Under the pieces are notes generated by a model, which did no database searches, was not told where the DNA came from, and saw nothing but the letters and a program-made list of their open reading frames with translations. The translations under genes were made by a program, and so were the position numbers. From a bacterium (GTDB lineage: Bacteria; Electryoneota; Electryoneia; Electryoneales; Electryoneaceae), in the NCBI GenBank assembly GCA_020444425.1, contig JAHLLB010000011.1:19915-83914 (forward strand): a stretch of 64,000 bases of DNA, given 5' to 3'. Positions 2,721 to 56,470 of the stretch are shown here, in pieces (position 1 is the stretch's first letter; the number at the start of each line of letters is the position of its first letter).

Positions 2721-2730
2721 GGGAGGACGC

Positions 2731-18648: not shown

Positions 18649-18708
18649 ATCATCTCCAAAAAACGATGGTAAATCCAGCAAGCGTACGCTGAGTTGTTGC
18701 TCGGCCAG

Positions 18709-33346: not shown

Positions 33347-36300
33347 ATGACCAGACGCGCACGGGGTGCCTTGATTCTCCTTGCCATGCTGTTCCTGCTA
33401 CCGGTCCTTTCTTTCGCCCGTGATGACGATCAAAAGCCATCGCCGGATCCGTTCTACGATGTTGAACGGTTGCCGAACGGGCTGCGCGCCAAGGTATCGC
33501 TGGCAACGTTGACGGACAGCACGACAATCAGCGCGATGATCGCCGCCCCCGCCGGACACGGAGTCACGGCTCTGCTGACTGCAGGCTCCGGGGTGGAAGC
33601 AGCTGTCGCCGAGCCCATCAATTTTCGTGGGATCACGTTGTACCCGCTACAGGTTCGTCCAGCTCCGGGACATGGATGGTCCGGAGATGACATCGCGGTG
33701 GTGGAAGCTCAGTTTACGCAGGCTGGGCTGGACAACATCGGTGAGCCCGTCCGTGTCAGCGAGCAGACGGCCCGCTGGATCGAGCGCGCGGTGTTGAACA
33801 GCGAAGAGCTGGACATGGAGACCGTCGCCCCGGTCGGCCGGATTCTGATCGTCGTGCAGGATGACGCACAGATTGTCGGAGCTCTCGAACCGTACATCGC
33901 GTGGAAGCGGCAGCAGGGGTATCGCATCAGCATCGCCCACCCGTCGGACAATACGGACCCCTACGCGATCAAGAACGAAGTCACGGCTGAGTATTTCAGC
34001 GACAACCCGGTCCCGTTGGAATACGTGCTGATGATCGGTGATCACGACTCCAATTCGCAAGTCCGGATGGTCGGGTACCGTTACGACAACAACTTCAACA
34101 GCAACCACACAGACAACTGGTATGTCACCATGGACGGCCGGCTGCCGGTTCCGGATGTCGCCATCGGCCGCTTCAGTGTCCGAGAACTGAACCAGTTGCG
34201 CATCGGCGTCAACAAGACGCTGGCCTACGAACGCGACGGAGAACTTGACGACGAGTCCTGGATTCGGCACGCCGCGCTGACAGCCGGATCGAACTCAGGC
34301 ATCAGCGTGTTGCAGACCAACCAGTCGATCCGCTGGATGTTCGACGAGCAGGACTTCGCAGTCGATACGTTGTGGTGGACCATGCCCAACGGCGGCATGA
34401 TCCCGACCTTCATCCACAACCAGATCGAAGAGGGTGTCGGCTTCGTCAATTACCGCGGCTATTACGGCATGAGCGGGTGGGACAACAACGATCTGATCGG
34501 GTTGAACAACGTCGGCAAGCTACCTGTCGTCGTCACCATCACCTGCGGCACCGGCCTTTGGGGCACCGAGGACGAATCGATCAGCGAAGGGTTTTTCCGT
34601 GCGGGCTCGGTCAACGAACCGGTTGGCGGGGTCGCGTGCATCGGCACCGGTACCACCGACACGCACACACGATTCAACAATGTGATCGACGCCGGCGTGT
34701 TTGAGGCGTTGCTGTCCTACAACATGCGCTCGCTTGGGTGGGCGCTGGTTCACGGCAAGATGCGGCTGGCCGAGGCGTACAACGGCACCAGCGATTCCGG
34801 CTGGATCATCCGCTTTGTCAACTGGAACAACCTGATCGGCGACCCGGCGTTGCGGATGTGGCTGAATGCGCCTGTCGAACCGACCGTTACTCATACCCCG
34901 TCCCTGCGTCCCGGCAGCAACTTTGTCGACGTGCAGGTATCGCTCCCGGGCGACTGGCCGGACATGATCTGGGCGACCGTCGCCAGCCAGGATACCGTGC
35001 TCGATTCGCGCAGCTTCGTCAGTGATGGCCGTGTCCGCCTGCAGCTTCCGGACCTGGACCCGGATGACACAATCACCCTGACCGTCGTCGGCGACGATGT
35101 CCTGCCGTACCAGGCAGTGCTGCCCATCGTGGCGGAGGCGAACGACGTCGAAGTGACCGGTGTGATCGTGGATGATAACGGTGATGGCATCCCCAACGCC
35201 GGCGAAACGGTCACTCTCGACCTCGAGCTGACGAACCAGGGCAGCGCCACCATCAGCGCCGGACAGGCCACGGTCAGTTCAATCGACCCGCGTGTTGAAT
35301 CGATCGGCACCACGACCTTTGATTTCCCCACGATCGGCGTGGGCCAAACAGTGACCGTGACGAACGCGGTGACGTTAACCATTTCCGGATGGGCGCCGGA
35401 CGGCTGTTACCCGGCGGTGACGGCCTCCTTCCCCGGCGACATTCAGAGCTCGATTCCCTTGGAGGTGATTGCGTGGGAGCTGGATGCCGAATCCTCCTTT
35501 GCCTGGACAGACAGCACCAGCGACCGGCGCATATTCCCGGGCGAATCCGGTGAGGTCGCGTTCCCGGTCAAAAACTACGGTCGCGCGGACGCTACCGGAT
35601 TGCAGGCATCACTGTACTTTGACGACGCCCGCTTCTCTGTGCTCAACAACCCGGTGACGTTCGCCGATGTCGGAGCGGATTCCAGCCGTGACAACCTCAC
35701 GGTTCCGTTCCTGGTTCAGCTGACGGATCAAGCCCGGGTCGGTGAATTGGTTCCGGTGGTGGTGCACTTCGAGGATGCGGCCGGAGCGGTGGACAGCGTG
35801 GAAGCTGTGTTCATTCCCGCCGACCCACGAGCCGCCGGCGCGACCGGTCCCGACCTGAATTACGGCTACTGGGCGGTGGACGATGAAGACGTCGAGCTGA
35901 TCCGGCCCGAGTACGACTGGTACGACAACATCCTTCCCATCAACAACGTCGGCCTTGAGGACAACTACAGCGGTGGAGCCTACCAGTACGGCGAGGAAGA
36001 TGCCAGCATGGTGATGGACCTGCCGTTCCCGTTCGTCTACTACGGTGAAGTCTACGACGAGGTCACGATCAACACGAACGGTTGGATCGCCCTCGGCAAC
36101 AAGTCAACCATCATCCTCTTCCGCAATTGGCCGATTCCGAACCCGATGGGTCCACCGGCGATGATTGCGCCATTCTGGGACGATCTGCACACGGGAACCA
36201 GCGGTGTGTACGCCAGCTACGATGCGCTGACCGACCGGTTCATCGTGACCTGGGACTGCCTCGCGGCCTCGGACCAGACCCCGGAAATCTTCCAGGTGAT

Positions 36301-38140
36301 TCTCTACGGTCCGACCATGCACCCGACCCAGAGCGGTAATGGGCGCATCCTGTTCCAGTACCAGGACGTCACTCCGGTGACCAGCAACAGCACGGACAAC
36401 GACTACATCACGGTCGGCATTGAGAGTCCTGACCAGTTAAGCGGCGTCGAATACGTCTACTGGGATTTCTACCGCGCCGGCGCGGAAGCGATTGAGCCGG
36501 AGCGGGCGATCTTGCTGACGGATGACCTCACCTCGTCGGCGTCCTATTCAGAGGGCAGCATCACGCCGGATGAAATCGACGTTACGCTGCAGGGAGTGGA
36601 CGAGACAGAGGTTCCGATTTACATCGAGAACGTTGGCGATGAGAACCTGATCTGGGTGGTAAGCACCGGGTACGGTTCAGCGCCGGACAACGTGACTCGC
36701 AACAACCACCTGCCGATCGAGTCCGACTGGAACCTGATCGATGCGATTTCGCCGAAGGACAGTTGGGGTTATTACTGGCTGAGCGACGAAGAAGAAGGCG
36801 CGGAATACGACTGGATCGAACCGCCCGCGGATGCTCTGGTCATGACCGGGGACGATCTCCGAATCGGTGATCTGGACGACGGTTATTTCCGCGGCGTCAA
36901 GATGCCGTTCCCGTTCGAATTTTACGGCAGCTACTACGATTCGGTCTATGTCAACCCGAACGGCTTCCTCGCCTTCCAGGGTGACCTGGACCTGGATTAC
37001 GGCACCAACCAGAACCGGATCATCCCCAGCACCTGGGCCCCGAACCGTTACAATCCCGCCGCGTTGGTCATGGCCTGGTGGGATGATCTCAACATGGATC
37101 TTGGCGGCGAAGTCAGCGTATGGACTGGTGTTGAGGATTCCGTACTGGTCACATGGGACGATGTGTACGCCGACAACGGAACCGGCCCGTACACGTTCCA
37201 GGCGTTAATTTTCAAGCACGGCTGGATCAAGCTGCAATACGAGGACATGGACGAAACCAACCTGCTCAGCGCGTCCATCGGCATTCAGAACCATGACGCC
37301 GAACACGGGCTGGAAATCTGCATGCAGGAACCGTTCATGGAAGATCAGCTCAGCCTGATGATTGCCTACGACCTGACGTGGCTGGATACCGGTAACGATT
37401 TCGGGATTCTCGCTCCTGGTGAGACGGACACCGCCATCGTGCTCGCGTTCTCGGATGATCTGCGCATGGGAACCTTCGAGGGACACGCCATTGTGCGCAT
37501 GAATGACAGCGACACACCGGTGTCTTATGTGCCGCTGCATGTCAACGTGGAAGGTGTCGGCGCGGTCCCGGACGTGGCGGAGATCGACGATCTGCACGTA
37601 CCGTTCGGGTTCCCCTTCGAACCGTTCCCGCTGGATGATTACGTCACCGACGACGTCTGGGGCTCGGATCGCATCCGCTGGTCAGTCAGCGGCAACACCG
37701 ATCTGAACATCAACGTTTTCGAGCGCACGTTGTACATCGAGAAACCGAACATCTTCTGGGAAGGGGCGGAAGAGGTCACCTTGACCGCCACCAACCCTGA
37801 GAATAACGCAGATTCGGAGACGATTACGATCTCGGTCGGGTCGGTCAGTGTGGACGAGGCCGATGATGGCCTCCCGCGCGAATTTGCGGTGGGTCCACTG
37901 TACCCGAACCCGTTCAACCCGTCCGTGACGATGGAAGTTGCCTTGCCGGAACCGTCCGGGATTACCGTCGCGGTGTATGACGTTCTCGGCCGTCTGGTTC
38001 AGACGATTTCGATGCCGGGACAGGCTCCGGGCTACCATCGTGTGATCTGGGACGCCGGTTCGCGTCCGTCCGGGGTGTACTTCCTGCATGTGCAAGCCGC
38101 AGGCAAGCAGCAGGTTCGCAAGGCCGTGTTGATGAAGTAA
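33347..38140 (+). CDS. C25 (gingipain-like) peptidase-family protein with Ig-like and two NIDO-like domains and T9SS CTD
   Basis: YIAWKRQQGY, VLMIGD, DVAIGRF, FVNYRG, ITCGTG, NLIGDP. Two PFPF.(F/Y)YG..Y...N.NG...WDDL domains. YPNPFNP tail. Confidence 0.9.
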   Translation: MTRRARGALILLAMLFLLPVLSFARDDDQKPSPDPFYDVERLPNGLRAKVSLATLTDSTTISAMIAAPAGHGVTALLTAGSGVEAAVAEPINFRGITLYPLQVRPAPGHGWSGDDIAVVEAQFTQAGLDNIGEPVRVSEQTARWIERAVLNSEELDMETVAPVGRILIVVQDDAQIVGALEPYIAWKRQQGYRISIAHPSDNTDPYAIKNEVTAEYFSDNPVPLEYVLMIGDHDSNSQVRMVGYRYDNNFNSNHTDNWYVTMDGRLPVPDVAIGRFSVRELNQLRIGVNKTLAYERDGELDDESWIRHAALTAGSNSGISVLQTNQSIRWMFDEQDFAVDTLWWTMPNGGMIPTFIHNQIEEGVGFVNYRGYYGMSGWDNNDLIGLNNVGKLPVVVTITCGTGLWGTEDESISEGFFRAGSVNEPVGGVACIGTGTTDTHTRFNNVIDAGVFEALLSYNMRSLGWALVHGKMRLAEAYNGTSDSGWIIRFVNWNNLIGDPALRMWLNAPVEPTVTHTPSLRPGSNFVDVQVSLPGDWPDMIWATVASQDTVLDSRSFVSDGRVRLQLPDLDPDDTITLTVVGDDVLPYQAVLPIVAEANDVEVTGVIVDDNGDGIPNAGETVTLDLELTNQGSATISAGQATVSSIDPRVESIGTTTFDFPTIGVGQTVTVTNAVTLTISGWAPDGCYPAVTASFPGDIQSSIPLEVIAWELDAESSFAWTDSTSDRRIFPGESGEVAFPVKNYGRADATGLQASLYFDDARFSVLNNPVTFADVGADSSRDNLTVPFLVQLTDQARVGELVPVVVHFEDAAGAVDSVEAVFIPADPRAAGATGPDLNYGYWAVDDEDVELIRPEYDWYDNILPINNVGLEDNYSGGAYQYGEEDASMVMDLPFPFVYYGEVYDEVTINTNGWIALGNKSTIILFRNWPIPNPMGPPAMIAPFWDDLHTGTSGVYASYDALTDRFIVTWDCLAASDQTPEIFQVILYGPTMHPTQSGNGRILFQYQDVTPVTSNSTDNDYITVGIESPDQLSGVEYVYWDFYRAGAEAIEPERAILLTDDLTSSASYSEGSITPDEIDVTLQGVDETEVPIYIENVGDENLIWVVSTGYGSAPDNVTRNNHLPIESDWNLIDAISPKDSWGYYWLSDEEEGAEYDWIEPPADALVMTGDDLRIGDLDDGYFRGVKMPFPFEFYGSYYDSVYVNPNGFLAFQGDLDLDYGTNQNRIIPSTWAPNRYNPAALVMAWWDDLNMDLGGEVSVWTGVEDSVLVTWDDVYADNGTGPYTFQALIFKHGWIKLQYEDMDETNLLSASIGIQNHDAEHGLEICMQEPFMEDQLSLMIAYDLTWLDTGNDFGILAPGETDTAIVLAFSDDLRMGTFEGHAIVRMNDSDTPVSYVPLHVNVEGVGAVPDVAEIDDLHVPFGFPFEPFPLDDYVTDDVWGSDRIRWSVSGNTDLNINVFERTLYIEKPNIFWEGAEEVTLTATNPENNADSETITISVGSVSVDEADDGLPREFAVGPLYPNPFNPSVTMEVALPEPSGITVAVYDVLGRLVQTISMPGQAPGYHRVIWDAGSRPSGVYFLHVQAAGKQQVRKAVLMK

Positions 38141-41297: not shown

Positions 41298-41331
41298 GCT
41301 CAAGACTGGTGTCACGTGGACACCGCCAAGC

Positions 41332-43344
41332 TTACTTCATCAGCATCATCTTGCGGGTAGCGGAGAATTCACCGGCGTTCAGCTGGTAGAAATACAGACC
41401 GCTGGCGAGGTTCGCACCGTCAAAGGTGAGGCTCTGGTGACCGGCAGCCATCTGGCCGTTCTTCAGCGTCATGACCTGCTGGCCAGCAACGTTGTAGACG
41501 GTCAGGGTGACGTCCGCTGCGTGCGGCAGCGTGAAGTCAATCTGCGTGGTCGGGTTGAACGGGTTCGGATAGTTCTGATCGAGGCTGAACTCGAGCGGCT
41601 GTGTCGCCGTCGGTTCACCAACCGTGGTCGCGCCGAACCAGTTGACCACATTGCCCATCAGGGTCGTGAACTGCGGCGTGATGAACGGCCAGTCCGGATT
41701 GGTCCAGTCAAGGGTATACTCAACGTCAAAGCCGAGGAAGACGGTCTTGCCGCCCCAGGCGTTCTCGTAACGGATACCGTTGACATAACCGAGGTCCGCA
41801 CCTTCAAAGATGGTTTCGGTTTCGGACACACCGGTGACCGCTTCCGGCCAGCTTTCCGCATCCGGATCCTCGAACTCGAGCATGTACGGATCATCCGCGA
41901 AGTCGTCCGAGATCGGGTCGTCCGGGATACCGTAGAACTGTGAGTCACCCGGGTTGTCGAGGTCGTTGCGTGCTTCCTGGATACCAAAGACATCATACGC
42001 AAAATCGCCGGCGGCGAAGCTGGGTTCTTCCGGTTCCGCGTTTGCGAAGAAGTAATCCTGGTCAGCGTAGAAGAAATTACCGCCACCCATCAGGTACGGA
42101 ATGTACGCGTTGCCCGTGTAGTCGCGGCTCGGAACAGAACCCGCGCCCCAACCAACGACGATCACGGCGTTCCAGTCGGAAGTCGCCAGCAAGTACTCAT
42201 CAATACCCTTGTTGTCGTCGACATCGTAGAACGAGTAGTAGATGCCGGCGTTCACGAGCGCGTAACGCATCTCGTAGGTGAAGTTCGACTGATGATCGAT
42301 GAGGAGGATATCAGCATCCAAGCCAACCTGTTCGATGATATCGAAATTCATCTGGCTGTCTTCGTTGCTGTTTTCCTGGCCTTCATCGTCGACGGCCCAG
42401 ATCCAATAGCTGATCATGTCACCGACCGCATTGTCGAGTGTGAAGGTGGATTCGAAAATGCCGTCCTCATCCGGATCGAGCATTTCGTACTGCATCGGAG
42501 CGCCACCATTCACCGAGACATTCAGCATCGCTTCATGATCGTCGGTCCAGCCCGCATCGTCGAAGATGTCGCACGTGATGGTGCATTCCTTCGAACCGTT
42601 GACCGTGTTCGGCAGCTGGTTCATGTTGCCAATGATCGGCGGGGCGCCGAGCGGGTAGGACACGCCCACACGCATGGCGAGGTCAACGACCGGAGCGGAG
42701 GAACCGTACGCACCCCAGGTTTCATCATAGGTGTCCATCCACGGACCACCGAACCAGGTGTAGGTAAAGCCACGGGCCGAAATGTTGTCCGCCAGCGGCT
42801 GCGGCATGCCGTCATCCTGGGTCTTGACCCAGCCGACGATGAACGCGCGGCCGTCGTCAATCCAGATCGCTTCGCCGTTGAACAGCTCTTCCTGTTCAAA
42901 CAGGTACTCACCCCAGTCGCCATCACCGTTGCTCAACTTGTTGAACGGGCCGAACAGGGCTTCACCCAACGGGCTGACCGGTGAGGTACCACGCAGCGGC
43001 GCGCGGCCATCGGCATACATTGCGGCGGCGTCCGGGTTGTATTCCCAGACGAATGACTGGAAGTTACCCGCCGTGTACCACTGCTGTTCTGCGAAGTGCA
43101 CCGAGCACGGAGCGAGCGGCTGGAAGTGCACGCACATGGTGTCACCCAGCGCACCGGAGCTGAGGTAGTAGTCAGTGGTACCATCGCTCATGCGGTTCAG
43201 GTACAGACCGTCCCATTCATCCAGCTCGGGGCCGGTCACGCCCTTCGTAACTTTCGTTGGCTCGAGCAGGTGGATGTCAGTCGCCCACGCCGCCCCAACG
43301 GCGATCAACAGCGCCATGCTCATCAATACCAAACGTTTCAACAT
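41332..43344 (-). CDS. Secreted T9SS-CTD protein with unrecognised N-terminal domain (paralog of the 56471 and 59372 genes)
   Basis: Signal peptide; [14 protein letters not shown] and TWFGGPW motifs; GATase-like domain; [13 protein letters not shown]...ASGLYFYQL. Confidence 0.85.
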
Positions 43345-43411
43345 ACTTCACCCCTTTCGTTGTACGACGTGATGTTACCATCACGACTTCCGGAACTACT
43401 TCCGTTGCTTG

Positions 43412-44341
43412 TTACTGTAACTCGTTCAACTTTTCCTGCAGAGTAATCAGGAATTCTCCGTAGTTCACCGCGTAATAGTAGGTGACAACGTACGAATCGC
43501 CTTCTGCAGGAATTGGATTTCCTTTGAATCGAACAGCGTCTCCCGTGACATCGTATCCCGTGATCTCGAAAGTTATGTCATCCTGCATGACAGAAACAGG
43601 ATAAACAAGATTCACGATCGGGAGATCGAGTTGTGCAATCCCATCAAGGTGCGTGTTCTGTAGCAATGTGACGTCAACCGCCTCGTCGGGAACTTCGACG
43701 ATCACCCCCGCATTCTCCAGCGCCGGGATAAACGCGTTGTCGTCAACATCATCCAGCACAACCATCACCTCGCCATACTCACCCTGACCGTACCAGGCCA
43801 TCGCTTCGAGCAGCTTGACCGAGTCCATGTCAAAGCCCGGCAGCCAGCGATGGGTCGGGTTTGCCATGTCCGCCCAATACTCCTGGGCGGCCTGTGCCTC
43901 TTCGACAGCCATCTCGAAGTCCTGCGTGCTCAGGGCAACGCTCGCCTTGCCTGCGCAGGCTTCCGCAAACAGAGCGTCCACATCCGTGGCTTCCACTTCG
44001 CCGGTTTCAATCAGCACCGCTCCCAGTGTCAGCACGTTTGACAGGTTTCGTTGCGCACTGATCGGTTCGCGTGAATCGGCGAACGCATAGCCGAGCCCGA
44101 GGTACGCTTCGAGGTTGCTGGATTCAGCGTTTGCGGCATCCGCGAACATGTTGAGTGCGTTATCGACTTCGCCGTTGTTCAGATACTCCCACCCCCGCTC
44201 GATCATCAGATCAACGGTCACAGCCGGGCCGGTCGGGATATCGTCACTTTCGGTTGAACAACCCACCACCATGAACAGGGCGGTCAACAGGAGCCCGGCG
44301 GTCAGGATGCGCAAGGTCAGCCGATGAAAATTGGTCTGCAT
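43412..44341 (-). CDS. TPR lipoprotein
   Basis: GGAGG RBS; VVGC lipobox; TPR GWEYL...EAYLGLGYA. Confidence 0.8.
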   Translation of the reverse strand: MQTNFHRLTLRILTAGLLLTALFMVVGCSTESDDIPTGPAVTVDLMIERGWEYLNNGEVDNALNMFADAANAESSNLEAYLGLGYAFADSREPISAQRNLSNVLTLGAVLIETGEVEATDVDALFAEACAGKASVALSTQDFEMAVEEAQAAQEYWADMANPTHRWLPGFDMDSVKLLEAMAWYGQGEYGEVMVVLDDVDDNAFIPALENAGVIVEVPDEAVDVTLLQNTHLDGIAQLDLPIVNLVYPVSVMQDDITFEITGYDVTGDAVRFKGNPIPAEGDSYVVTYYYAVNYGEFLITLQEKLNELQ

Positions 44342-44366
44342 TGTATGATCCTCCATCCGGGGCTGG

Positions 44367-47300
44367 TTACTTCACCAACACCATTTTACGGGTCTTGTTG
44401 AATCCCGGCGCATCCATGCGCACGAAGTAGACACCCGACGCGATCGGCACACCAGCCGCACTCTGTCCATTGAAATGGAACTTGTGCGTACCGTACGCCA
44501 GGTCGCCGTCGAACAGTCGCGTCACTTCGCGGCCCAACACATCGTACACCGCCAGCGTAACCGGACCGGTTTGCGGCAGCGCGATCTTGATCGTGGTGCT
44601 CGGGTTGAACGGGTTCGGATAGTTCTGCCCCAGCTCGAAGCTGGTCGGAACCATCAGGTCGTCCGGGATGTCGCCAATCGGACCCGCCATCACGGCGTAC
44701 GTGCCGGTCTGGCCGACGCGCACGGTGATCAGGCCGACTGCCGGATTGGCTTCGCCACCGACATACACCCATTCGTCCTTGCGCAGCAGATACACGCCGG
44801 CATCCTCTTCGCCCACGGCATCAACGTCATACGGAATCCGCAAGGTCAACGGATCTTCGACCTTTTCGATGTGGTTGCCGATGCTGTAGCGACCACTGAC
44901 CGGCGTACGTCCATCCGTATTCTGGATGAACTTGCCCAGTCCGACCGACGCCACATCCGGCGCACGGACGATCATCAGGTCCTTGTCACGGTCGAAGCTG
45001 CGTGAGGTCGAACTCACCTGGAATCCGTCACTCAGTTTTGCCATCGACGGCCGTCCACCAGCAAAGGTGGACATCACGATGAAGATCGGATCGACATCCG
45101 CAACCGGGACACCATTCGAGTAGTATCCTTCGAGCGCATAGTGCATTTCGCCGGTATCCGTCATCGTGACGTGCGCGACGTACTGATCGTAACGGCCCGT
45201 CGCGTTTTCGACTGAGGTTATCTCGAAATCATCGGGGGAATCGTAGGTTGCGAGCACCGAATCCTCAGCCCCGCCGTAGTACACCTTCACCGTCGGAGCA
45301 GCAACTCCGTCCGCCCGGTACAATGGCTGTTCGGTGATGACGTACAGGTCGAGCATCGTTTCGATAATCGGATTCTGCATCACAAACAGACGGCTGTACT
45401 CCGCGGCATTCTGCTGATGATGCACGAGGAAGTCACCGCCTGCACCCGCCGCGATCAGGAAGAAGGTCGGGAAAGTTGCCTCCGGATCGTCCACGGGGCC
45501 CAGGATCCATCCATCGCCAGGGCTGATCGGCACCACGCCGACATTCAGATCACCCTCGAGTTCGATTTCCTGGGTCAGGATCGGCTTCGCGCTGAGGTTG
45601 TTGTCAACCTCGGTCGCCTGCATGTTGACTTTCCGGAACGCGATATCCGTCGCATCCTCACCGGCAAAGACAACCAGGTTGTCGTTAACCGGATCCAACG
45701 CCCTGTTTAACGTGGTTGCGGTGTACCCGGTGAAGAAATAGTCGAATCCCCATTCCGTGTTCGTCCGTTGGAACGGCGCACGGTCGGGACCGGCAGATGT
45801 CTTCCAACGCATCGGACCACCGCGAATCGCGGCTTGCGTGTTGATGTTCTCGAACATGAACCGGTTGTGATCGTCCTCGGAGTACGACGTATCGATCAGG
45901 TTCGCGGTCGCGAAGTCAAGGAACACGTCGACCACGTCCAGATCCTTCTGCCAGTCCTCCAACTGGTCGTTACGGTCGGACAACGCATCCGCCACGCCGA
46001 AAATGTCAATGCGCGGTGAAACAGACACAGCGGTCAGCATGTCATCACCGCCGTACTTTTCCCACAGGTACAGCATGTACATGAAGACGTGCTTGTAATC
46101 CACGCGGGAGGACAGATCGGACCCGATGAAGGTCAGATCGTTGCCACCCGTCAACCCCCGGGTTTCGGAATCACCGTAGTATCGAGGATGACGGAAGGTG
46201 TAGAACTCTGTGAAGTAGGCCAGACCGTACTTGACCCAATCAACTTCAAACTTGTCAACCTTGTAGCTGACGTACTGCGTATAAACGTTGGCAATGGCGG
46301 ACAAACCGGCTTCATCCAGCTCGTCCATTTCGCCCTCTTCCCAGATCTCGTTGTTGTCGTTCCAGATCCAGGCATCATCACCCGTGTTGTAGCTCTGCGG
46401 GTAGCTGTCGAGGACAATCAGTTCCGCCTCGTTGGAATACTCATCTTTGCCGTTACCCGGCAGGTCGCTCGGCAGGAAATAGCCGTGCTTCCAGAACCCG
46501 GCGTCGCCGTCATTACGCCCGACACCGTACTCATCCCAGATGTCGGTAAACAGGATGACAATCTGTTCCGGGATCTTGTCTGCACGTTCGCCGCCAATCA
46601 GGTCGTCAATGGCCGCCTTGGCTCCCATGTCGGGGAGTTTCAACGTCCGTGTCTCGAAGAAGGTTACCGCGCTGTCCAGCTCAGACTTGCGCAGCGGTGT
46701 GACCATCGGGTGTTCAACCGACTTGCCTTCGCGCAGGTAGAAGGGCTCGTACGGCCGGCCCCACTGGTCGTTGGCAACATACCACAATGCACCCGGACTA
46801 ACCTCACGCAGTGACGCTTGCACGATACGCGGCAGCGTCGGGAACGCTTCGTGGCTGCGGATGTAGAATTCGCGACCGTATCCGAGGATCAGGACGGATT
46901 CGTACAGATCGTTCGATGTCGTATCGCCGTCCATCAAGCCTGTTTGCTCGACGTTCGCGATACCGTCCGCCGTGGTGATGAACCCTTCGCCGACGTCCAG
47001 TACCAGGTCTGTCCGGTCAGCCTCATTGATGCCCTTGATCGACGAAACATCCGTCTCGCTCAGGTACAGCGAGATGCGGTTCGGTTCAGAGATTTCGACG
47101 GATTCCGGCGCACCAACCGTGAGGCCATTCAGCTGTATCCTGGTCAGGTCGATATTTTCTGCCGGAACGGTTCCGTTCGTACCCACCACAAACCGTCCGT
47201 GCACCTCATCGAACCAGACATATTCGACCAGCGGCGGGTTTGGATCGGCGATGTAGTTGAAGTCTTCGACTTCGATGTACCGGTTGCCGTTCAGCTTGGA

Positions 47301-48980
47301 TGACTGCTTGACCGTGTACGGGTCAATCACCATCCGCAATGAGCCGGTATCGATCGTGTTTTCCAGGGCGTAGCGGTCTTCCTCGCTGATAATGATCGAG
47401 AAGGCCTTGTTGCCGCCGGTACGCTCCACCGTTCCATCAGTGAGAGTGACAGTGTCGTCATCCGCCGAGATAAAGTGAATCCCCTCGAACACGACTTCCG
47501 CGTCCAACCGCACGTCGAACAGGATATACAGTTCGTTGGTATCGGCGTCGTAGTACGGCGGCTCCTCCAGATCAAGCGCAGGCCCCTTGTCGCGACCTTC
47601 GGCGATGATGGTCAGCGGGATGCCGTCCGGATTGCCGTCGTTGTTTTCATCCTGGGTGACGTTGCCGTTTCCATCTGCGCTTAACACAGTCGCAGATCGG
47701 ACAAACACCTGGAATTCGAGATCGTTTCCGGTGTCGCCTTCGCCGTCACCGTTCTGGTCAATCAGGTCCTCGGTGGCATGTGCTGTGCCGACACCCATCT
47801 GAACCGTCAGGCTGGAATCAGAATCCGCCAGGCCGGCCAAACCGGACTCCAGCGCATAGGAGTAGGTGGAATCGGGTTCGATGCGCCGAATCGAAAGCTT
47901 CGGGATAACCGCATAATCCTTGACATTGGAAGCGAGCGCCTGGTTGAACTTCACCTTCAGCTCGTTGGAACCCATGTCATACTCGGCCCACATGGCATAC
48001 AGCGGATTCGGGTCCTCAGTGTACTCGACCGCAACATCCTCGACCGGCACCGCTGGGTTGTAGTCGACATCCACGAACGTGTAGTCCGTGAACCGGATCA
48101 TCATCGTTTCCGTGTCCAGAGCTTCCACCGTCGCCCGTTCGGCCGGCAGCAACTGCAACTGCAGCACGTCGGAATCCATCTTCGTCAGGTCGGCTGCGCT
48201 TGACAGGGTCACGAGTGTGTTGTTGGCGTCGTACAACGTGATCTGCGGAACGACGACGTTGGCTTCGAAATCAAGGACGCCGTTGCCGTTGCGGTCTTCG
48301 TTTTCACCACCGGTCAGCACGCCGTCACCCGGCGCTGGCCAGTTCTTGTTGTACGGGTCTTCCGTAGCCACATCTTCCGGGATCTGGTCGAACTGCATCA
48401 CCTTGTTGAAGCTCAGGGTCAGCGTGTTCGACGCGGCGTCGTATGCGGCATCGGTCAGATTGACCTCATCGTCGGAAACGACTTCCAGGTAGGTGAGGTC
48501 GATCCACGTACCTTCCGACAGGTTGCCTTGCGGATCGCTGGCCATCCCGGCCGGGCACCACATCCGCATGTGATCGAAGGTCATGTGGTCCAGCTCTTCC
48601 TCAATGACCAGCAGGTCATCGTAGTCCAGACCCCAGAGCTGGCGGTCTTCGCTGGACGTTCCGTCATCGTAGACATATTCGGCGATGACGCCTTCGAAGT
48701 AGGGGTGGAACATGATTTCCGTGGGCGTACTTCCATCCATCACGATCCCGCCACGCAACTCGTGGTCACTGAGCGGGCCGCCCAAGTCGTCGTCAATCAT
48801 GATCCCGGTAATGACGAAAGCATCCGGGTCAACGGCAACATTGGAACTGAATTCCACGGAAAATGAGTTTGTCAACTCGTCATAGGTTGCGGCGGTTGGC
48901 ACAGGTTGCGCCATGAGCAGTGGCGCGGCCAACAGCAGCAGGACCGGAACCCATACGAGTGCATATCTCAGTCGTAGCAT
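44367..48980 (-). CDS. Giant secreted T9SS-CTD protein: about 5 Ig-like repeats, then an M30-like peptidase domain lacking HExxH
   Basis: Signal peptide; repeats of A.YD...N.L.(L/V).F; IVILFTD..GYF...SNEAEL.VLD, then ANVYTQ and YMLYLWEKYGG; [13 protein letters not shown] tail. Confidence 0.82.
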   Translation of the reverse strand: MLRLRYALVWVPVLLLLAAPLLMAQPVPTAATYDELTNSFSVEFSSNVAVDPDAFVITGIMIDDDLGGPLSDHELRGGIVMDGSTPTEIMFHPYFEGVIAEYVYDDGTSSEDRQLWGLDYDDLLVIEEELDHMTFDHMRMWCPAGMASDPQGNLSEGTWIDLTYLEVVSDDEVNLTDAAYDAASNTLTLSFNKVMQFDQIPEDVATEDPYNKNWPAPGDGVLTGGENEDRNGNGVLDFEANVVVPQITLYDANNTLVTLSSAADLTKMDSDVLQLQLLPAERATVEALDTETMMIRFTDYTFVDVDYNPAVPVEDVAVEYTEDPNPLYAMWAEYDMGSNELKVKFNQALASNVKDYAVIPKLSIRRIEPDSTYSYALESGLAGLADSDSSLTVQMGVGTAHATEDLIDQNGDGEGDTGNDLEFQVFVRSATVLSADGNGNVTQDENNDGNPDGIPLTIIAEGRDKGPALDLEEPPYYDADTNELYILFDVRLDAEVVFEGIHFISADDDTVTLTDGTVERTGGNKAFSIIISEEDRYALENTIDTGSLRMVIDPYTVKQSSKLNGNRYIEVEDFNYIADPNPPLVEYVWFDEVHGRFVVGTNGTVPAENIDLTRIQLNGLTVGAPESVEISEPNRISLYLSETDVSSIKGINEADRTDLVLDVGEGFITTADGIANVEQTGLMDGDTTSNDLYESVLILGYGREFYIRSHEAFPTLPRIVQASLREVSPGALWYVANDQWGRPYEPFYLREGKSVEHPMVTPLRKSELDSAVTFFETRTLKLPDMGAKAAIDDLIGGERADKIPEQIVILFTDIWDEYGVGRNDGDAGFWKHGYFLPSDLPGNGKDEYSNEAELIVLDSYPQSYNTGDDAWIWNDNNEIWEEGEMDELDEAGLSAIANVYTQYVSYKVDKFEVDWVKYGLAYFTEFYTFRHPRYYGDSETRGLTGGNDLTFIGSDLSSRVDYKHVFMYMLYLWEKYGGDDMLTAVSVSPRIDIFGVADALSDRNDQLEDWQKDLDVVDVFLDFATANLIDTSYSEDDHNRFMFENINTQAAIRGGPMRWKTSAGPDRAPFQRTNTEWGFDYFFTGYTATTLNRALDPVNDNLVVFAGEDATDIAFRKVNMQATEVDNNLSAKPILTQEIELEGDLNVGVVPISPGDGWILGPVDDPEATFPTFFLIAAGAGGDFLVHHQQNAAEYSRLFVMQNPIIETMLDLYVITEQPLYRADGVAAPTVKVYYGGAEDSVLATYDSPDDFEITSVENATGRYDQYVAHVTMTDTGEMHYALEGYYSNGVPVADVDPIFIVMSTFAGGRPSMAKLSDGFQVSSTSRSFDRDKDLMIVRAPDVASVGLGKFIQNTDGRTPVSGRYSIGNHIEKVEDPLTLRIPYDVDAVGEEDAGVYLLRKDEWVYVGGEANPAVGLITVRVGQTGTYAVMAGPIGDIPDDLMVPTSFELGQNYPNPFNPSTTIKIALPQTGPVTLAVYDVLGREVTRLFDGDLAYGTHKFHFNGQSAAGVPIASGVYFVRMDAPGFNKTRKMVLVK

Positions 48981-49024
48981 CGAAAATCCTCCTGACTCTG
49001 TCTCATCCTCCATCGGGGATGGGA

Positions 49025-50005
49025 TCAGAACGAGAACGAGATGTTGAACCGGTGCACATCCTCAAGAACACCGTACTCACTGAACGCGTAATCAATTCCG
49101 ATCCGCTGCCACAGGAAACCGACACCTGCGGACATGCCGAGGGTATCGTGGCGGAACGTGTAGCCGCTGCGGAGGAAGAACATTTTCTGGAAGCCGTATT
49201 CGGCGCCCAGATTCACGCGTTCAATGTTGTCGTTCGGATGCTCGAGGTCACCCGCAAGGGTCAGCCGGTGCTGTTCAGTGTTCAATGGGTCCATGGCCAC
49301 GCCAAGCCGGAAAACCATCGGGAAATGGTAGGGCAGAAATTCCGTCGATTCCGTCGCCTGGGATCCGTTGTCGAAGTCGTAGTAGCCGCCATCCAGCTGC
49401 ATTTCCGGTCCGAAGTTGCGCACCGCCATGGCGAGCCGGACCGAGTTCCACTGGGTGTCGTACATGATGCCGACGTCGATCGCGAAGTTCGACGCGACTT
49501 CGGTGTCGAGATCTTCGCGCACATACTTCAGGTTCGTTCCGAAGGAGAATTTGTCGGTCAGGCTCATGCCCAGTGACATGCCGCCGACGATGTTGGTCAC
49601 GTTAAAGGTTTCACCGGTACCCATCGGTTGCTGCACCGTGGTTACCTCCATGTCGCCCGACCCCATCGCGAGGGCGAACGCGCCAATGGTAAAGGTGTCG
49701 TTGAGCCTGTGTGCGCCGCCGACCGCGTCATAGCTGATATCAGCGAAGTACTCCACATGCTCGAACATCACCGATGAACTACCGATCTGTGTCATGCCCG
49801 CCGGGTTCCAGAACATGGCGGACTGGTCGTTACTGATGGCGGAGAATGCGCCACCCATGCCGACACCTCGCGCGCCGATAGGCAGCTTGAGGAAGTCAGC
49901 CCCGGTGGTGCCGACTTTTGCGAATTCAGCGTGGGCGCCGCCAGCAGCGACGAGCAGGGCGATCAGCACCGCCAAGCCCAGCTGATATACCGTTCGTCTA
50001 TTCAT
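49025..50005 (-). CDS. PorV/PorQ-family outer-membrane protein
   Basis: KVGTTGADFLKLPIGARGVGMGGA, FWNPAG, IDYAF, terminal Phe. Confidence 0.9.
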   Translation of the reverse strand: MNRRTVYQLGLAVLIALLVAAGGAHAEFAKVGTTGADFLKLPIGARGVGMGGAFSAISNDQSAMFWNPAGMTQIGSSSVMFEHVEYFADISYDAVGGAHRLNDTFTIGAFALAMGSGDMEVTTVQQPMGTGETFNVTNIVGGMSLGMSLTDKFSFGTNLKYVREDLDTEVASNFAIDVGIMYDTQWNSVRLAMAVRNFGPEMQLDGGYYDFDNGSQATESTEFLPYHFPMVFRLGVAMDPLNTEQHRLTLAGDLEHPNDNIERVNLGAEYGFQKMFFLRSGYTFRHDTLGMSAGVGFLWQRIGIDYAFSEYGVLEDVHRFNISFSF

Positions 50006-50027
50006 GATCGAACTCCTTGTGCCGAGG

Positions 50028-52562
50028 TCAGCGGATGATCAGAAACTTCCCGACTTTCTTCTCGTAACTGGGCGACTCCGTCTCAACGACGTAGACGTAC
50101 AGCCCCGATACGACTTTCTGGTTGTTCCTGCTGATCAAATCCCAGTAGACCGCACCGATGGTTCCGTCATCCTTGTAGATCTCCTTGATCAGATCGCCGT
50201 TCAGCGTGAAAATGCTGATCTTGCACAGGGAGGGAAGGTTGATGAAACTGATCTGGTCTTCGTACCGCGCTTCGAACGAGGCGGTACCCTTGTAGGGATT
50301 CGGGACGACCTTGATATCGTCCATGGTCAGGTCGCTGTCTGGATCATCCGGATCAGCCGCCGGTGCGTCGATAGGAAGCACACCGGGGATCACCGCCTGC
50401 GGCGCACCGTCCAGATCCTTGCGGTAGTTCGACTTCGCCGATTCAATCGACGGCAGGCCGAACGTCGACATTTTGTCCGGATCGTAAGCGACAACGGTGT
50501 AGTAATACTTCAGCCCGTTGACCGGCCGTTCGATGTCCTTGAAGATGATCGTGCCGTTCTTGTCGGCAAAATCACCGCCGTAATCCTCATACGTATACGT
50601 CAGGTCGGGCAGGTCGACCGGGATGTAGTTCCAGTCCACACCCTGCACGTTGTTCTCGTCCCCGACGATCTCAGCGTATTCGGGTTCGTTGTACGCGTAC
50701 TGGGAACCGTCGTATTCGATCGGGTTGAGCGTGTCACCTTCCGTGTTCTTCAGGTAGGTATCACCCTCGTTGGGCATGTCAAATGCTGCGATCATGTCCC
50801 AGGTCTGCGGGTTGTACTTCGACCGGTAGATCTTGTACCCGAGGAAGTCGGTTGTGCCGAGGAAGCTGTCGATCGCATCCTCCGCGCTGTCATCCCAGAC
50901 TAGTTTCACGCCGGCGTCCAGCGCGCTGTAGTGCAGGTCTGGAATCGCGGGCGGAATCGGTAGCAGGAAGTGCCGGTCCTCGCGAATCATCGCGTCGCTG
51001 GTGCCGGTAAACCCGATCTGGCTGGCGAACGCGTCGCTTGGTGGAATTTCCGGATCGCCGATTTCAGCCAACTCACCCTGGTAGTAAGCGACGAGGGCGT
51101 TGTCGATGTTCTCGCGCAATCCCTGAATCCCCCAGCCAACACCCGTCACCGCGACGAACTTCTTCGTTTCGCCGTCCGTGAAGCTGTGCGGACCGCTGGA
51201 GAGGATGTAGCGGTAGTCGAACACCGGGGCTCCGGCGCCGTAATCGAACGGGTGCGGCATGAAGCGCTGACCGGCGGACAGCGTGTGCGTACCGGTCATG
51301 TATTCATACTTCTCCCTGTCCGAACCCGGGTCGGATTCCCAGTTCCACCACTGGTGTGAATACGGGCGATGGGGCGGATCCCATTCATCTTCCGGAGCCC
51401 GGTTTTGGCTGGCCAGGTACGGATCATCCGGGATGTAAAGGAACTTGGTTCCGATGAAACCAGCCACCGCCGGGTTCATGCTGCGTTCGCCGATGTCGAT
51501 CTCACCAGACTGCGGGTAGTCACCATCATACATGTAGCTCATGTCACGCGGAATCAGGTACCCGCGCAGGGAATCTCCAGCAGCCGTAACCACCGGCTCA
51601 CCGGCAACGTATCCTTTGTCCGGAACACTGACCTGGTACCGGATGTAATCCGGAACGTCGTACCCGGCTTCCACATACACTGCCGGATCCACGACGTAGA
51701 TCTGGAATTCGTCCCAGATACCGTCCGGTTCCGGATTGTCATCAGCCGGAGCTTCTTCGCCGGCAACCGGAGAATAGCCGTTCCAGAACGGGTTGCGCGG
51801 GTCAGCCTTCGCCCAGCCCCAGTAATCGTAGCCGGTTTCTTCGTTGCCGTCCAGATCCAGCGGGTCGACCCAGTCGTACTTATATGGGTTCTGACCTTCC
51901 GGTGCCCAACCGTCATAATCGACGAGGTCGTCGATCGCCGGCTGGTCCGGGTCGTAGTGCGCGCCCACATCGTTGTCGTACACGAAGGATATGTACACGT
52001 TGTTCAACTGGCCACCGCTGACGTTTTCCACTTCGATCAGCTTGATGATGAAGTCGTCGTAATCGGTCAGCGACCATGCAAGCGTGCGCTGATGGAATTT
52101 CAGGCCGATCGGAGTGTGGCCACCGATTTCAGCGTTCAGGTCGTCAAAGTGGGACAACCCGTCCTGAATCGACTTCGGGCCGGTTCCGAAATAGAAGCTG
52201 GAACCGTCCGTCGGGTCGAGTTCGTAGTTGCCGTAGTCCGCGTGGCTGACGAGCGGTTCACCGCCAACCAGCGCGCCGGCCCAGAAGCGGCCTTCCCAGA
52301 TGTAGTAGACGCCGGACCCGCCGGGCCACTCGCCCGAAGGCAGCAGCTCGTTAGGTTCGCCGTAGTTACCGAAGTTGGAAACAGCGGTCCAGAAGTTGCC
52401 GACATCATGCACTTTGTATTCTGTCGGCGGACGGGCAGCGGTTCTCCGCGGACCTTTCTTCGGACCGGTCATGTCAATGCGCGCGGCAAAGCTGGAGCTC
52501 GCGGCCAGCAGGCAGGCGAGTAACACCAGCAACACCGTCGTCAGGATGTGGTTTCTTCTCAC
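50028..52562 (-). CDS. Secreted TBDR-associated protein with FN3-like region and variant CTD
   Basis: AGGAGG + GTG start; signal peptide; HDVGNFWTAVSNFG; GYKIYRS, YYYTVVAYD; IKVVPNPY...INLP..C.ISIFTLNGDL...SGLYVYVVE. Confidence 0.85.
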   Translation of the reverse strand: MRRNHILTTVLLVLLACLLAASSSFAARIDMTGPKKGPRRTAARPPTEYKVHDVGNFWTAVSNFGNYGEPNELLPSGEWPGGSGVYYIWEGRFWAGALVGGEPLVSHADYGNYELDPTDGSSFYFGTGPKSIQDGLSHFDDLNAEIGGHTPIGLKFHQRTLAWSLTDYDDFIIKLIEVENVSGGQLNNVYISFVYDNDVGAHYDPDQPAIDDLVDYDGWAPEGQNPYKYDWVDPLDLDGNEETGYDYWGWAKADPRNPFWNGYSPVAGEEAPADDNPEPDGIWDEFQIYVVDPAVYVEAGYDVPDYIRYQVSVPDKGYVAGEPVVTAAGDSLRGYLIPRDMSYMYDGDYPQSGEIDIGERSMNPAVAGFIGTKFLYIPDDPYLASQNRAPEDEWDPPHRPYSHQWWNWESDPGSDREKYEYMTGTHTLSAGQRFMPHPFDYGAGAPVFDYRYILSSGPHSFTDGETKKFVAVTGVGWGIQGLRENIDNALVAYYQGELAEIGDPEIPPSDAFASQIGFTGTSDAMIREDRHFLLPIPPAIPDLHYSALDAGVKLVWDDSAEDAIDSFLGTTDFLGYKIYRSKYNPQTWDMIAAFDMPNEGDTYLKNTEGDTLNPIEYDGSQYAYNEPEYAEIVGDENNVQGVDWNYIPVDLPDLTYTYEDYGGDFADKNGTIIFKDIERPVNGLKYYYTVVAYDPDKMSTFGLPSIESAKSNYRKDLDGAPQAVIPGVLPIDAPAADPDDPDSDLTMDDIKVVPNPYKGTASFEARYEDQISFINLPSLCKISIFTLNGDLIKEIYKDDGTIGAVYWDLISRNNQKVVSGLYVYVVETESPSYEKKVGKFLIIR

Positions 52563-52585
52563 GGTGATGTATCCTCCTGCCTCGT

Positions 52586-55500
52586 TTAAAATTCGATTCC
52601 TGCGCCGACCTGCAGCATGCGGCCACGCTGGTAGTAACGCGGATCGTCGTACTTCCCGTCGACGTCGTTGAACTGTTCGTACCAGCCGGTGTCAGCGTTT
52701 GCCTGGAAGAAGCGCTGGTCGATGTTTTCACGATCCAGCAGGTTGTAGACCTGCACGAACGCGTACACGTTCAACGATTTCCAGATGCCCCACTCCTTCT
52801 GCACGCGTGCGTCGAAGGTGAGCGTGTAGGGCAGGCGCTGATCGTTGATCGGCGGATCCAGCGACCGGGCCGGGCTCGAATAGGGCAGGCCGCTGCCGTA
52901 CTTCCCGATCAAGTTGATCGACAGCCCGTCGAAGTACGGTAGGCCGAAGATGTCGGAATCCGTCGGTACGAAGAACTGGACGTTGCCGTAGATCGTGTGG
53001 CGCTGATCCCAGTCGAGGTAGGATTCCGTGGTCCGGATCAGGTTCCCGGCCCAGGCGTTTTCATAGTTCTGGCGCGCTTCGGACGCCTTACCCTTGGCCA
53101 CCGCGTAGGTGTAGGAGAGGCTACCACTGGTGAAGTTGCTGAAGCGCTTGCTGAGGCTCATCTCGAAACCACGGACGTTGCCGTAGTCCTGGTTGATGTA
53201 CAGGCCGTACCAGTTACGCGCGGTGAAGAACACCTGCCGTGTGTCAACCAGGCCGCTGATGTCCTTGTAGAAACCGGTGGCGACAAACACGACGTCATCG
53301 GTAAACTGGTGACGCAGCGTCAGCTCGTACGAGGTCGTCCGTTCCGGTTCGAGGTTCGGGTTGCCGACGATCGGGAACGCACCGGAGAAGTCCCAGTTGA
53401 CGTTGGTGAACGCGTAGCGCAGCAGCGGAACCTGGAAGTTCCGGCTGTAGTTGAAGCTCAACTGGTCGCGTTCGGTGATCGGGAACGCCACACCAAGACG
53501 CGGACCCCAGTAGGTCTTGCCTTCAACCGCCGTTGGATCTGCAACCTCGCCACCAAGTGACGGGTCGGTAACCGGGTTGGTGATGTCAGAGGGGTAGTCA
53601 TCCCAGTTCACGTCGAAGTAGTCCGCACGCAAACCGAGGTTCAACACCATCCCCTCAAATTCCATCTTGTCTTCCACGAACGCGCCGTACAGACGCGGCG
53701 ACGCAGTGAAGTTCTGGCCGTACACGTTACCGCCGGAGGCCATGTCCACATCGTGGTCGAACAGTTCGTAGAACGTCAGCTCGAAACCGGCCTTCACTTC
53801 GTGGAACTGGTGCATCTGGCTGGTGATGTGTCCCTTGAACGTGTAGGTTTCCTTGCTGTCGTTGTTCCAGCGGGACCGGTTGTACGTCGTACCGGTGCCG
53901 TAGGTGTAGAAGTCGTTGTCGTCCTTGCTGTTCCCGAACGGCATATCTTCCCACCCCAGCCACGTGTCGCGCGGACCGGACTGTGACGCATCGACGTAGC
54001 CGTCGTCGTCCTCATCCGTCATCAGGTCGTGGGTCGGACCGTACTCTTCCCAGTCCCAGATCTCGTTGCCGTTGATGTCCTCATACTCCCAGACACCATT
54101 CTGGTTGTAATCGAACCAGTACTGGGTACCGTCGGCATTCGACTCCAGCACGTCACGATACTCGTTCAGCAGATCATCGGGAATCTCTTCGATCGAACTG
54201 TAGGCCTGTTCCAGATCGAGCTGGCCGTTGCCGTTCGCGTCTTCGTTGATGTATTCCCGCGTGTTGTAGTGCATCTCCGTCTTGAAGTAGGAGAAGCCCA
54301 ACTCGAAGTAGGTCCGCTCACTGATCGTCTGGTCCCACTTGGCGCTGAACTGGTTGATGTGCTGTTCGAAGTACGGCAGGTGATCGAGCATGCTGAAGTT
54401 GCTCAGGCTGCCGTCCTTGTTCAGGTCTTCGCTGTCGATGACGCCGTCACCGTCCAGATCCTCGCCGGCGTCCAGCACGCCGTTGCCGTTGAGGTCTTCC
54501 GTGTCCAGCTGGCCGTTGTTGAACCACGGGGAATTGCTCGGATCGTAGTAGACATAGTCGCTGGCAATCGTACCGTCGTCGTTGTACGACGGCGCGTAGC
54601 CATCAAGCCTGTCTTCATAGTCCGTGCGTGACCACAAGTGGGTGTAATTGGTCCAGTTGGAGTTGGTGACGTTGCCGCTGAGCGTGAATTTCTGCTTCGG
54701 CGTGGGGCTGTAGCTCAGCTTTCCGAACCCACTTGTCATCGTGCTGTCATCGTTCACGAACCGGCCGCGCGTATCGTACCACTGGCCGGCGACGAAGAAG
54801 TTGAGGTCACCGATGCGGTTGTCGAGCAACGGAATCGGACCCGACAGCGCGAACTGCAGGTCTTTCATCTCGTCGTCTTCAATGCCGCCGTCGTTGGTTC
54901 GGCCGAGGAACGACCCGGAGTAGCGTTCGCCACCCTCTTTCGTGATCTGGCTGACAACACCGGAGAGGTTGTTGCCGTACTGAGCCGACATACCACCAGT
55001 GGTCACGTTGACTTCCTCGAACGCCACCTGCGGGATGTAACCCTCATAGTCACCCGTCATCGGGTCAACCATCGACGCGCCATCCACGAGGTACAGCACT
55101 TCCTCCTCACGGCCGCCGCGGAAGTTGCCGCCGACCGCGCCCGGGGTCAGACGAATCACCTCACGCACGTTCTCGACCGGCATCGCCTTGATGTCTTCCG
55201 AGGTACGCGTGGTCCGGCTGTCCGTCATGTCCGGCTGGATCAGCGGTTTTTCAGCAACGAAGACAACCTCTTCCCCGATCAGGGCTTCCGGGGTCATCTC
55301 GATGTCAATGGTAGTTGTCCGGCCTTCCGTGACACGGACCTCGCGAACGGATACCGGACGGTAGCCGATGATTGAGGCCTTGATCTCGTAGGTGCCAGGT
55401 GGGACGTTCAGAATGACATAGCGGCCATCCAGGTCGGTAGCCGCGCCGTGCCGCGTTCCATCGATGATGATGTTCACACCGATCAGCGGCTCACTGCTCT

Positions 55501-55615: not shown

Positions 55616-56470
55616 GGCAGTCCCCATCTTAATCCGACAGTTCCTGCGGACGACGAAATCATCGACCGCTATCCACATCAAAAATGTTTCTGTCTTAATG
55701 GTTGCTGCGAAATTCGGCGCAGGGAAGGTTCGGATCTGCCTGAGAACTGGAGCGTTCCCGGTGGGGGACACCAATGGGAGGGAAGTACAACATCAACCCG
55801 GCGAGTGTAATGGAGACTCACTCACTCACCGTTACAACGAATACTGCAACATGTGGCCGACCGCTGCACAACAGATGAGTCTCCCCAGCCTCATCGGTAC
55901 ATCGATCACAAGCGGGCGATGAACCTTGTGCCCCGATACCGTAAGTATGCGCAGTGCTTGCATCGGAGACGACGTCCACCCCCGTGATCGACGTCCCGCA
56001 CCCCAGAAATCCGACCTTAGCCCTCTCGTTTCGTTCCGCGCGATTAACGAATTCCTAACAGATACGTTACGCAGGTAAAAGCTTGCGGGTCAACAACCTG
56101 GCAACGTTCCTCTCGACTCGTCTCGGAATCGTGCTCCGATTCTCGTAAACCCGCTTTGTCCACTAATAATCTGAAAAAGATACAAATTCTTCCAACAAAA
56201 AACACTCCTTGGAAGCATTTTACAGTAAAAGGGAGCTCTGGGTGTTTCGGGAGCACTGTGTTCCAAATGTCGCAAAGCTTCGATTTCTACGTTTTCACTT
56301 CTGCAAAACCACGTTCATAATCCGTAGTTCTGACAATCGGCCCGGCTTCGCTTTTAGGATTTCCCGGCCCTTCACCGTCAGGAGAGACTGCCTCCGGAGT
56401 CAGAGAGCACAAACGGAACACCCGGAGCAAATTGCCCCGGGCATGTATAAATGACACACCAGCATTGAGC

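Follow-up and report, generated by a model that had tools for sequence, protein, structure and literature searches.

An M30-derived domain without its zinc-binding residues is conserved in a six-gene TonB-dependent receptor operon

The 64,000-nucleotide (nt) stretch of DNA analysed here (the window; positions 19,915 to 83,914 of contig JAHLLB010000011.1, assembly GCA_020444425.1, from an uncultured bacterium of the Electryoneaceae that lives in sediment) carries an operon of six minus-strand genes separated by gaps of 23, 22, 11, 10 and 67 nt. In order, they encode a TonB-dependent receptor, an 844-amino-acid (aa) protein with a type IX secretion system (T9SS) sorting tail, a PorV/PorQ-family outer-membrane protein, the protein P0001, a TPR-like protein and a 670-aa T9SS cargo (Table 1). 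The central domain of P0001 is a true homologue of the M30 zinc peptidases, of gluzincin (hyicolysin/lugdulysin-type) descent, and its zinc-binding and catalytic residues have been replaced. This pseudo-M30 domain is quite probably a functional, non-catalytic component of the six-gene operon. The original prediction, made from the letters of the window, had placed a dead M30-like peptidase domain at 45850-46900, which corresponds to about aa 705-1054 of P0001. All of the strings that it quoted are found in the minus-strand translation of this open reading frame (ORF), among them DYKHVFMYMLYLWEKYGG, which is aa 972-989.

P0001 is numbered here along the full 1548-aa ORF. The true start is likely to be M12, at window position 48980, giving a protein of 1537 aa, because a GGAGGA box lies 7 nt 5' of that ATG and a hydrophobic, signal-like segment follows M12. 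The region ahead of the pseudo-M30 domain has only a below-threshold KTSC match in Pfam. When its profile is aligned with itself, off-diagonal matches appear at offsets of about 150 and 300 residues, each with 98% probability, and at about 425 with 93%. The region therefore contains at least four repeat units of about 150 aa. At its other end P0001 has a T9SS type A sorting domain, and it is predicted to be a cell-surface protein exported by Sec and T9SS. Two signs of T9SS machinery, the PorV/PorQ-family protein and a C25 PorU-like protein, lie within the window. T9SS cargo is processed and tethered at its C-terminus. Because the repeats are N-terminal, at the end far from this anchor, they are unlikely to form a stalk beneath the pseudo-M30 domain, which is therefore placed mid-protein at the surface with the repeats pointing outward. 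The repeat stalk of the original prediction thus keeps its repeats and probably loses its role as a stalk.

Table 1. Genes of the operon and features of P0001 in the window
Feature	Position	Strand	Evidence or remarks
Gene 1, TonB-dependent receptor, 1062 aa	52586..55774	-	Pfam CarboxypepD_reg, Plug and barrel
Gene 2, 844-aa T9SS-tail protein	50028..52562	-	NCBIfam matches C-terminal tail only
Gene 3, PorV/PorQ-family outer-membrane protein, 326 aa	49025..50005	-	NF033709, 219 bits (cut-off 90)
Gene 4, pseudo-M30 protein P0001, whole ORF, 1548 aa	44367..49013	-	ORF list and translation
P0001 N-terminal repeat region, aa 36-705	46899..48908	-	at least 4 tandem repeats of about 150 aa; no Pfam family
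P0001 M30-derived pseudo-peptidase domain, aa 706-1125	45639..46898	-	hhalign, AlphaFold2 fold, Foldseek, VIA-align, dN/dS
P0001 N909-V-Y-T-Q913, at the H-E-x-x-H zinc/catalytic position	46275..46289	-	hidden Markov model alignment columns
P0001 W926-V-K-Y929-G930, at the W-x-N-E-G (third zinc ligand Glu) position	46224..46238	-	orthologue and hidden Markov model alignments
P0001 post-domain region, aa 1126-1460	44634..45638	-	no family matched; least conserved part
P0001 T9SS type A C-terminal sorting domain, aa 1465-1548	44370..44621	-	TIGR04183, 37.7 bits (cut-off 23)
Gene 5, TPR-like protein, 314 aa	43412..44356	-	weak PilW/MamA TPR-family matches; 10 nt 3' of the pseudo-M30 gene
Gene 6 (last), T9SS cargo, 670 aa	41332..43344	-	

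The pseudo-M30 domain is linked to M30 through profiles and a predicted fold. A word-indexed search for orthologues of P0001 found 17 full-length proteins of 1347-1564 aa with 39-94% identity over the domain, making 18 with P0001 itself. The domains of 16 of these (P0003 and P0017 were excluded) form profile A2, which has 420 matches at E<=1e-3 among 1.84 billion representative proteins, of which 39 reach E<=1e-30. Profile A3 was built from 25 relatives that bear the zinc motif in the form HE[FLMYH][QE]H. The two profiles align over 306 columns with a probability of 99.92 (hhalign, E 2.5e-35), a similarity well outside what chance would give, and A3, searched over the whole genome, matches the gene of P0001 at E 6.1e-24. 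Against the PDB, A3 finds lugdulysin at E 8.6e-56 (entry 7bb8, and 7bb9, the E242Q Y315F mutant). Entry 7bb8 is titled an M30 zinc metallopeptidase in the Foldseek and VIA-align listings. M30 is the hyicolysin family.

The AlphaFold2 model of the domain, with a predicted local distance difference test (pLDDT) score of 69.5 and a predicted template modelling score (pTM) of 0.76, leads to the same enzyme. The best Foldseek match is 7bb8_A (E 2.3e-11, template modelling (TM) scores 0.52/0.60), with other gluzincins next. In VIA-align, lugdulysin has a Z-score of 25.3 with a root-mean-square deviation of 3.2 Å over 305 residues, and the next entries, M1 aminopeptidases, have 13.1. Both profiles, the match of A3 to lugdulysin and the modelled fold thus agree with the M30-like assignment first made from the sequence, and the fold comparison that had been proposed as its check puts lugdulysin first. 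In the hidden Markov model alignments the H, E and H of HEFQH stand over N909, V910 and Q913, and the Glu of W-x-[ND]-E-G stands over Y929; these are the columns in which the original prediction had set HExxH against NVYTQ and NEG against KYG.

Neither Pfam nor NCBIfam recognises the pseudo-M30 domain. The PF10460 (Peptidase_M30) profile, searched over the whole genome, gives only a 9.7-bit chance match elsewhere, and NF045524, the MXAN_6640 family of putative metalloproteases, has no match to the domain at E<=10.

The zinc site is lost throughout the orthologues. All 18 lack the two zinc His and the catalytic Glu, and none has HExxH or HxxEH anywhere. The third-ligand Glu, replaced by Y929 in P0001, is retained in five of the 18 (P0012, P0014, P0017, P0018 and P0019). 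The replacement of the whole site in an intact ORF, as first read from P0001, therefore holds for that protein, and the absence of HExxH holds for its orthologues. The local motif across the 18 is A-[IL]-A-N-x-[YF]-T followed by W-x-x-x-G-[LM]-A-Y-x-[ST]-E-F. In a wider set of 162 proteins (P0001 and P0003-P0163), none of the nearest 63 has HExxH at the site, the one such motif, in P0045, lying elsewhere in the protein; among the other 99, which are more distant, HExxH is present in 77, and HEFQH accounts for 47 of these motifs. The homologues on fetched loci divide by length, with all 19 long ones lacking HExxH and the sole short one (L012) having HEFQH. From its residues, it is well supported that the domain would be unable to work as a zinc peptidase.

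It is very unlikely that the domain is still a hydrolase, with a non-canonical active site rebuilt from other residues. Several residues could belong to such a site: N909 is present in 17 of the 18 orthologues, E936, D920 and E923 show little or no variation, and Y973 aligns with Y315 of lugdulysin, the residue mutated in 7bb9. Y973 is however a Tyr in just 10 of 20 compared sequences, the domain has no His or Cys that is invariant among the orthologues, and D920, E923 and W926 are invariant in active enzymes too and so look structural. The other positions of NVYTQ vary, and they do so freely at the catalytic Glu (V/L/I/M/A) and at the second His (Q/E/R/N/D/K), as does the third ligand (Y/L/K/V/E).

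A role for the domain as regulator of an active M30 paralogue was considered and rejected, as no such paralogue was found in the genome, which is 91% complete. Among the 150 matches listed for A3 in this genome, 149 are sorting tails and one is the domain of P0001 itself. At least 150 frames of the 4.5-Mb genome match the T9SS-tail part of A3 (319 first-look candidates), pointing to a very large T9SS secretome.

Purifying selection on the pseudo-M30 domain is strong. In the comparison with the orthologue of 94% identity, the domain has a ratio of nonsynonymous to synonymous substitution rates (dN/dS) of 0.05, the N-terminal repeats have 0.11 and the post-domain region has 0.155. Column conservation follows the same order, at 0.61, 0.56 and 0.52, and apart from the sorting tail the domain is the best-conserved large region of the protein. 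The motifs that it keeps in common with active M30 enzymes are D824, G844-Y-F846, S860-N861, D869, P872, D920, E923, W926 and Y982, and a G-R-N-D loop at aa 832-835 is also conserved. Because the domain is the best-conserved large region, is under purifying selection and keeps these strand and loop motifs, it appears to be a working part of P0001. A binding role is inferred because motifs that form the cleft are retained under strong selection: the old substrate cleft may now bind a peptide, a protein or a partner subunit without catalysis.

It is highly improbable that the domain is a relic in decay, functionless in itself and retained as a passenger of the protein. Such a relic would account for the loss of all catalytic residues and for the failure of any family model to recognise the domain, but it is already contradicted by the selection data, as the domain has the lowest dN/dS of the large regions and the highest conservation besides the sorting tail. 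The reading frames are moreover intact in all homologues found, and the domain is retained in relatives with just about 24% overall identity.

The proteins that combine the long architecture with the absence of HExxH form one clade. Trees of 157 sequences over 146 core columns were built with FastTree (midpoint-rooted) and with the fast mode of IQ-TREE, and both recover this clade, which in the IQ-TREE tree has 65 tips and a support of 81.4 (Shimodaira-Hasegawa-like approximate likelihood ratio test, SH-aLRT) and in the FastTree tree has a support of 0.963. A sub-clade within it keeps H-E and the third Glu and has a Lys at the second His, and 16 other HExxH-less proteins fall outside the long-architecture clade. 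In rough outline, as drawn from a short alignment, the catalytic loss may have been stepwise and partly repeated.

The clade comprises at least 65 representative clusters at 50% identity. Named members of the related clusters carry the label Candidatus Marinimicrobia/Neomarinimicrobiota or FCB group (Fibrobacteres-Chlorobi-Bacteroidetes) bacterium, and their public annotation goes no further than 'T9SS type A sorting domain-containing protein' or 'hypothetical'. The proteins of the clade come from Marinimicrobia-like and other FCB lineages, which abound in sediments and in oceans. For the 844-aa protein, the protein atlas has only clusters without names, mostly labelled Fidelibacterota. Across 79 species genomes of the phylum, the pseudo-M30 gene is matched in 26 and the 844-aa gene in 27; both genes have the same distribution over families, with the same three families lacking them.

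The operon is tight and ancient, and is kept even where the pseudo-M30 protein is only about 24% identical. The gene order is identical in all eight genome loci with enough flank, and two shorter contigs agree over the part that they cover. It is also found in eight of nine regions of more distant genomes of the phylum, where the pseudo-M30 protein is 23-34% identical and the receptor, 844-aa and PorV-like proteins are 40-61% identical, and on a metagenome contig with a relative of the HEFTK type, P0056. The ninth of the distant regions (L023 in G032) holds a second paralogue without the cluster.

The TonB-dependent receptor was described in the original prediction as adjacent to the pseudo-M30 gene. 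It lies instead two genes upstream in the same operon, with the 844-aa and PorV/PorQ-family genes in between. The conservation of the operon suggests that P0001, the receptor and the 844-aa protein act together at the outer membrane, and the binding site of P0001 would then sit within an outer-membrane surface assembly built by the six genes. It is plausible, with synteny as the sole basis, that the domain captures peptides or proteins for import through the receptor, although on balance the chances are somewhat against it. The ligand may be a nutrient peptide or protein passed to the receptor, or equally it may be a partner subunit.

The 844-aa protein may be the key component of the operon. 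It is the most conserved partner, with 54% mean column identity in an alignment (A4) of 15 sequences from several families. Many Asp, Gly and Trp residues are invariant in it and it belongs to no Pfam family. Its predicted structure is poor (pLDDT 50.3, pTM 0.41), a Foldseek search with it gives no match at E<=0.001 (TM<=0.18), and sequence searches of the PDB find no match for it; the 670-aa protein is matched there at its sorting tail only. The PorV/PorQ-family protein that separates the two genes matches PorV of PDB entry 6h3i at E 1.4e-12.

In a different role, the domain would be a structural adaptor that joins T9SS cargo proteins, the 844-aa protein foremost among them, into a complex at the surface and takes no part in nutrient capture for the receptor. 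In the P0029 class of paralogues (1679 aa), the stretch behind the pseudo-M30 domain, aa 1282-1570, shares homology with the 844-aa protein over aa 59-487 of the latter (E 5e-23 and 5e-17), which makes this class a natural fusion of the two modules, and the locus of that paralogue has no receptor nearby. The co-distribution of the two genes over the 79 genomes, and the position of the PorV/PorQ-family gene between them, point the same way. The fusion indicates a shared function, however, not contact, and an adaptor leaves unexplained the TonB-dependent receptor that heads the operon in every full locus. Such an adaptor can be proposed only tentatively, and adaptor and capture for the receptor are not mutually exclusive.

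The operon is represented in two freshwater-sediment metatranscriptome libraries (X3 and X4), which contain 78-79% of the sampled words of the P0001 gene. These are assembled contigs from one study, with no strand information. The contigs match the window exactly over 30 of 30 bins of 41300-55900, and contig pieces span the borders between the PorV-like and pseudo-M30 genes, the pseudo-M30 and TPR genes, and the 844-aa and PorV-like genes. Contigs over the 670-aa gene, at 41300-43560, have a word depth of 33-42 in both RNA libraries, against about 3-13 over the other genes. The difference is no more than suggestive of a separate or stronger transcript for the 670-aa gene, as contig depth cannot rank genes. 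Depth in a DNA run over the operon is mostly flat, at about 124-137, with two higher bins.

Several other genes of the window encode T9SS cargo or related proteins. The 670-aa protein has two paralogues on the same strand, of 790 aa (56471-58843) and 864 aa (59372-61966), and the three are 40-52% identical over about 560 aa, with no recognised domain besides the sorting tail. The PorU-like protein of 1611 aa (33305-38140, plus strand) has C25 peptidase, NIDO and CARDB matches and a T9SS tail, and in locus L008 its homologue lies directly 3' of the six-gene cluster. An S8 subtilase with a T9SS tail (45-2720, plus strand) is immediately followed by a second PorV-like gene (2668-3744, plus strand), another cargo with its own PorV-like partner. 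A further T9SS cargo (62150-63931, minus strand) has InhA-like MAM, CarboxypepD_reg and Cleaved_Adhesin matches and no match to a peptidase domain, and may be another protease-derived binding protein. The window also contains a hybrid histidine kinase of 1886 aa (13021-18681, minus strand) with GAF, many PAS and receiver domains, and a second PAS kinase of 958 aa (30263-33139).

Several observations weigh against a functional, non-catalytic M30-derived domain in this operon. Searched as a single sequence, the domain (aa 680-1120) has no match in Pfam (PF10460 included), NCBIfam or the PDB sequences even at E<=10, and profile A2 does not reach 7bb8 among the PDB sequences at E<=10, so that the domain is tied to M30 transitively, by way of profiles and of a modelled fold. 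The AlphaFold2 model is itself middling, with 108 of its 420 residues below a pLDDT of 50, the conserved GRND loop among them. The loss of zinc-peptidase chemistry is read from the residues, and the binding role is deduced. The L023 paralogue lies outside the cluster, so the domain is not strictly dependent on a neighbouring receptor. Lastly, the contigs of the RNA libraries may include carried-over DNA.

Lugdulysin (7bb8/7bb9) and hyicolysin, the staphylococcal M30 enzymes, have the same catalytic-domain fold as the pseudo-M30 domain. Outside the metal site, lugdulysin and the pseudo-M30 domain share GYF, SN..E..D..P, D..E..W and a helix of the YL.E.YG type; unlike lugdulysin, the pseudo-M30 domain lacks HExxH and, in P0001, the third-ligand Glu. 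The proteins also differ in architecture, lugdulysin being a Gram-positive protein of about 410 aa, whereas P0001, at about 1540 aa, sets about 670 aa of N-terminal repeats before the domain and ends in a T9SS tail. PMC9224237 describes lugdulysin as homologous to an S. hyicus protease.

Judged by residues, the nearest relatives that still look active are the HEFQH proteins, which are uncharacterised and 500-800 aa long. H-E-x-x-H and W-x-[ND]-E-G are intact in them, several have T9SS tails, and their domain lies near the N-terminus, in contrast to the central position of the pseudo-M30 domain. All 14 HEFQH relatives compared with NF045524 match it (E 1e-5 to 7e-11), each below the cut-off (25-42 bits against 140), and PF10460 has no match on 15 HExxH relatives. 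NF052323, a T9SS-dependent M6-like inactivated metalloprotease, resembles P0001 by its model title only and concerns another peptidase family; it scores 11.3 bits against a cut-off of 600, on the C-terminal tail only.

Pseudo-peptidases are known mostly from eukaryotes. In the literature searched on lugdulysin, hyicolysin and M30, on pseudo-peptidases with type IX secretion and on T9SS and TonB in Marinimicrobia, no M30-derived pseudo-peptidase is described, nor is this operon. In a 2024 review of pseudo-peptidases (PMC11266112), searched by term, M30 is not mentioned and 'bacteria' occurs in the reference list only. The present findings describe a whole clade of bacterial surface proteins that keeps a dead M30 domain under strong selection and is tied to one ancient TonB-receptor operon. 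They provide a family definition, a binding hypothesis that is open to test and a natural series of half-dead intermediates for the loss of a zinc site.

Among known systems, a close parallel to the operon is offered by outer-membrane uptake complexes of the SusCD/RagAB type, which work with surface binding proteins. A bold and rather doubtful extension of the capture reading would make the operon an undescribed uptake machine of Marinimicrobia-like FCB bacteria, in which T9SS-anchored proteins replace the SusD-type lid and surface lipoproteins. The pseudo-M30 domain would be a non-cutting catcher that feeds the TonB-dependent receptor, and its site would have been lost stepwise through forms that still exist (HE..K with the third Glu, then N....). 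Among the six operon genes, Pfam finds no homologue of SusD/RagB, and the receptor scores 61 bits against the SusC/RagA model TIGR04056 (cut-off 368), in its N-terminal part only. As in SusCD/RagAB systems, the first gene of the operon encodes a TonB-dependent receptor that bears an N-terminal CarboxypepD_reg domain, and genes for surface-exposed accessory proteins come after it, but here those proteins are cargo of the T9SS and not lipoproteins.

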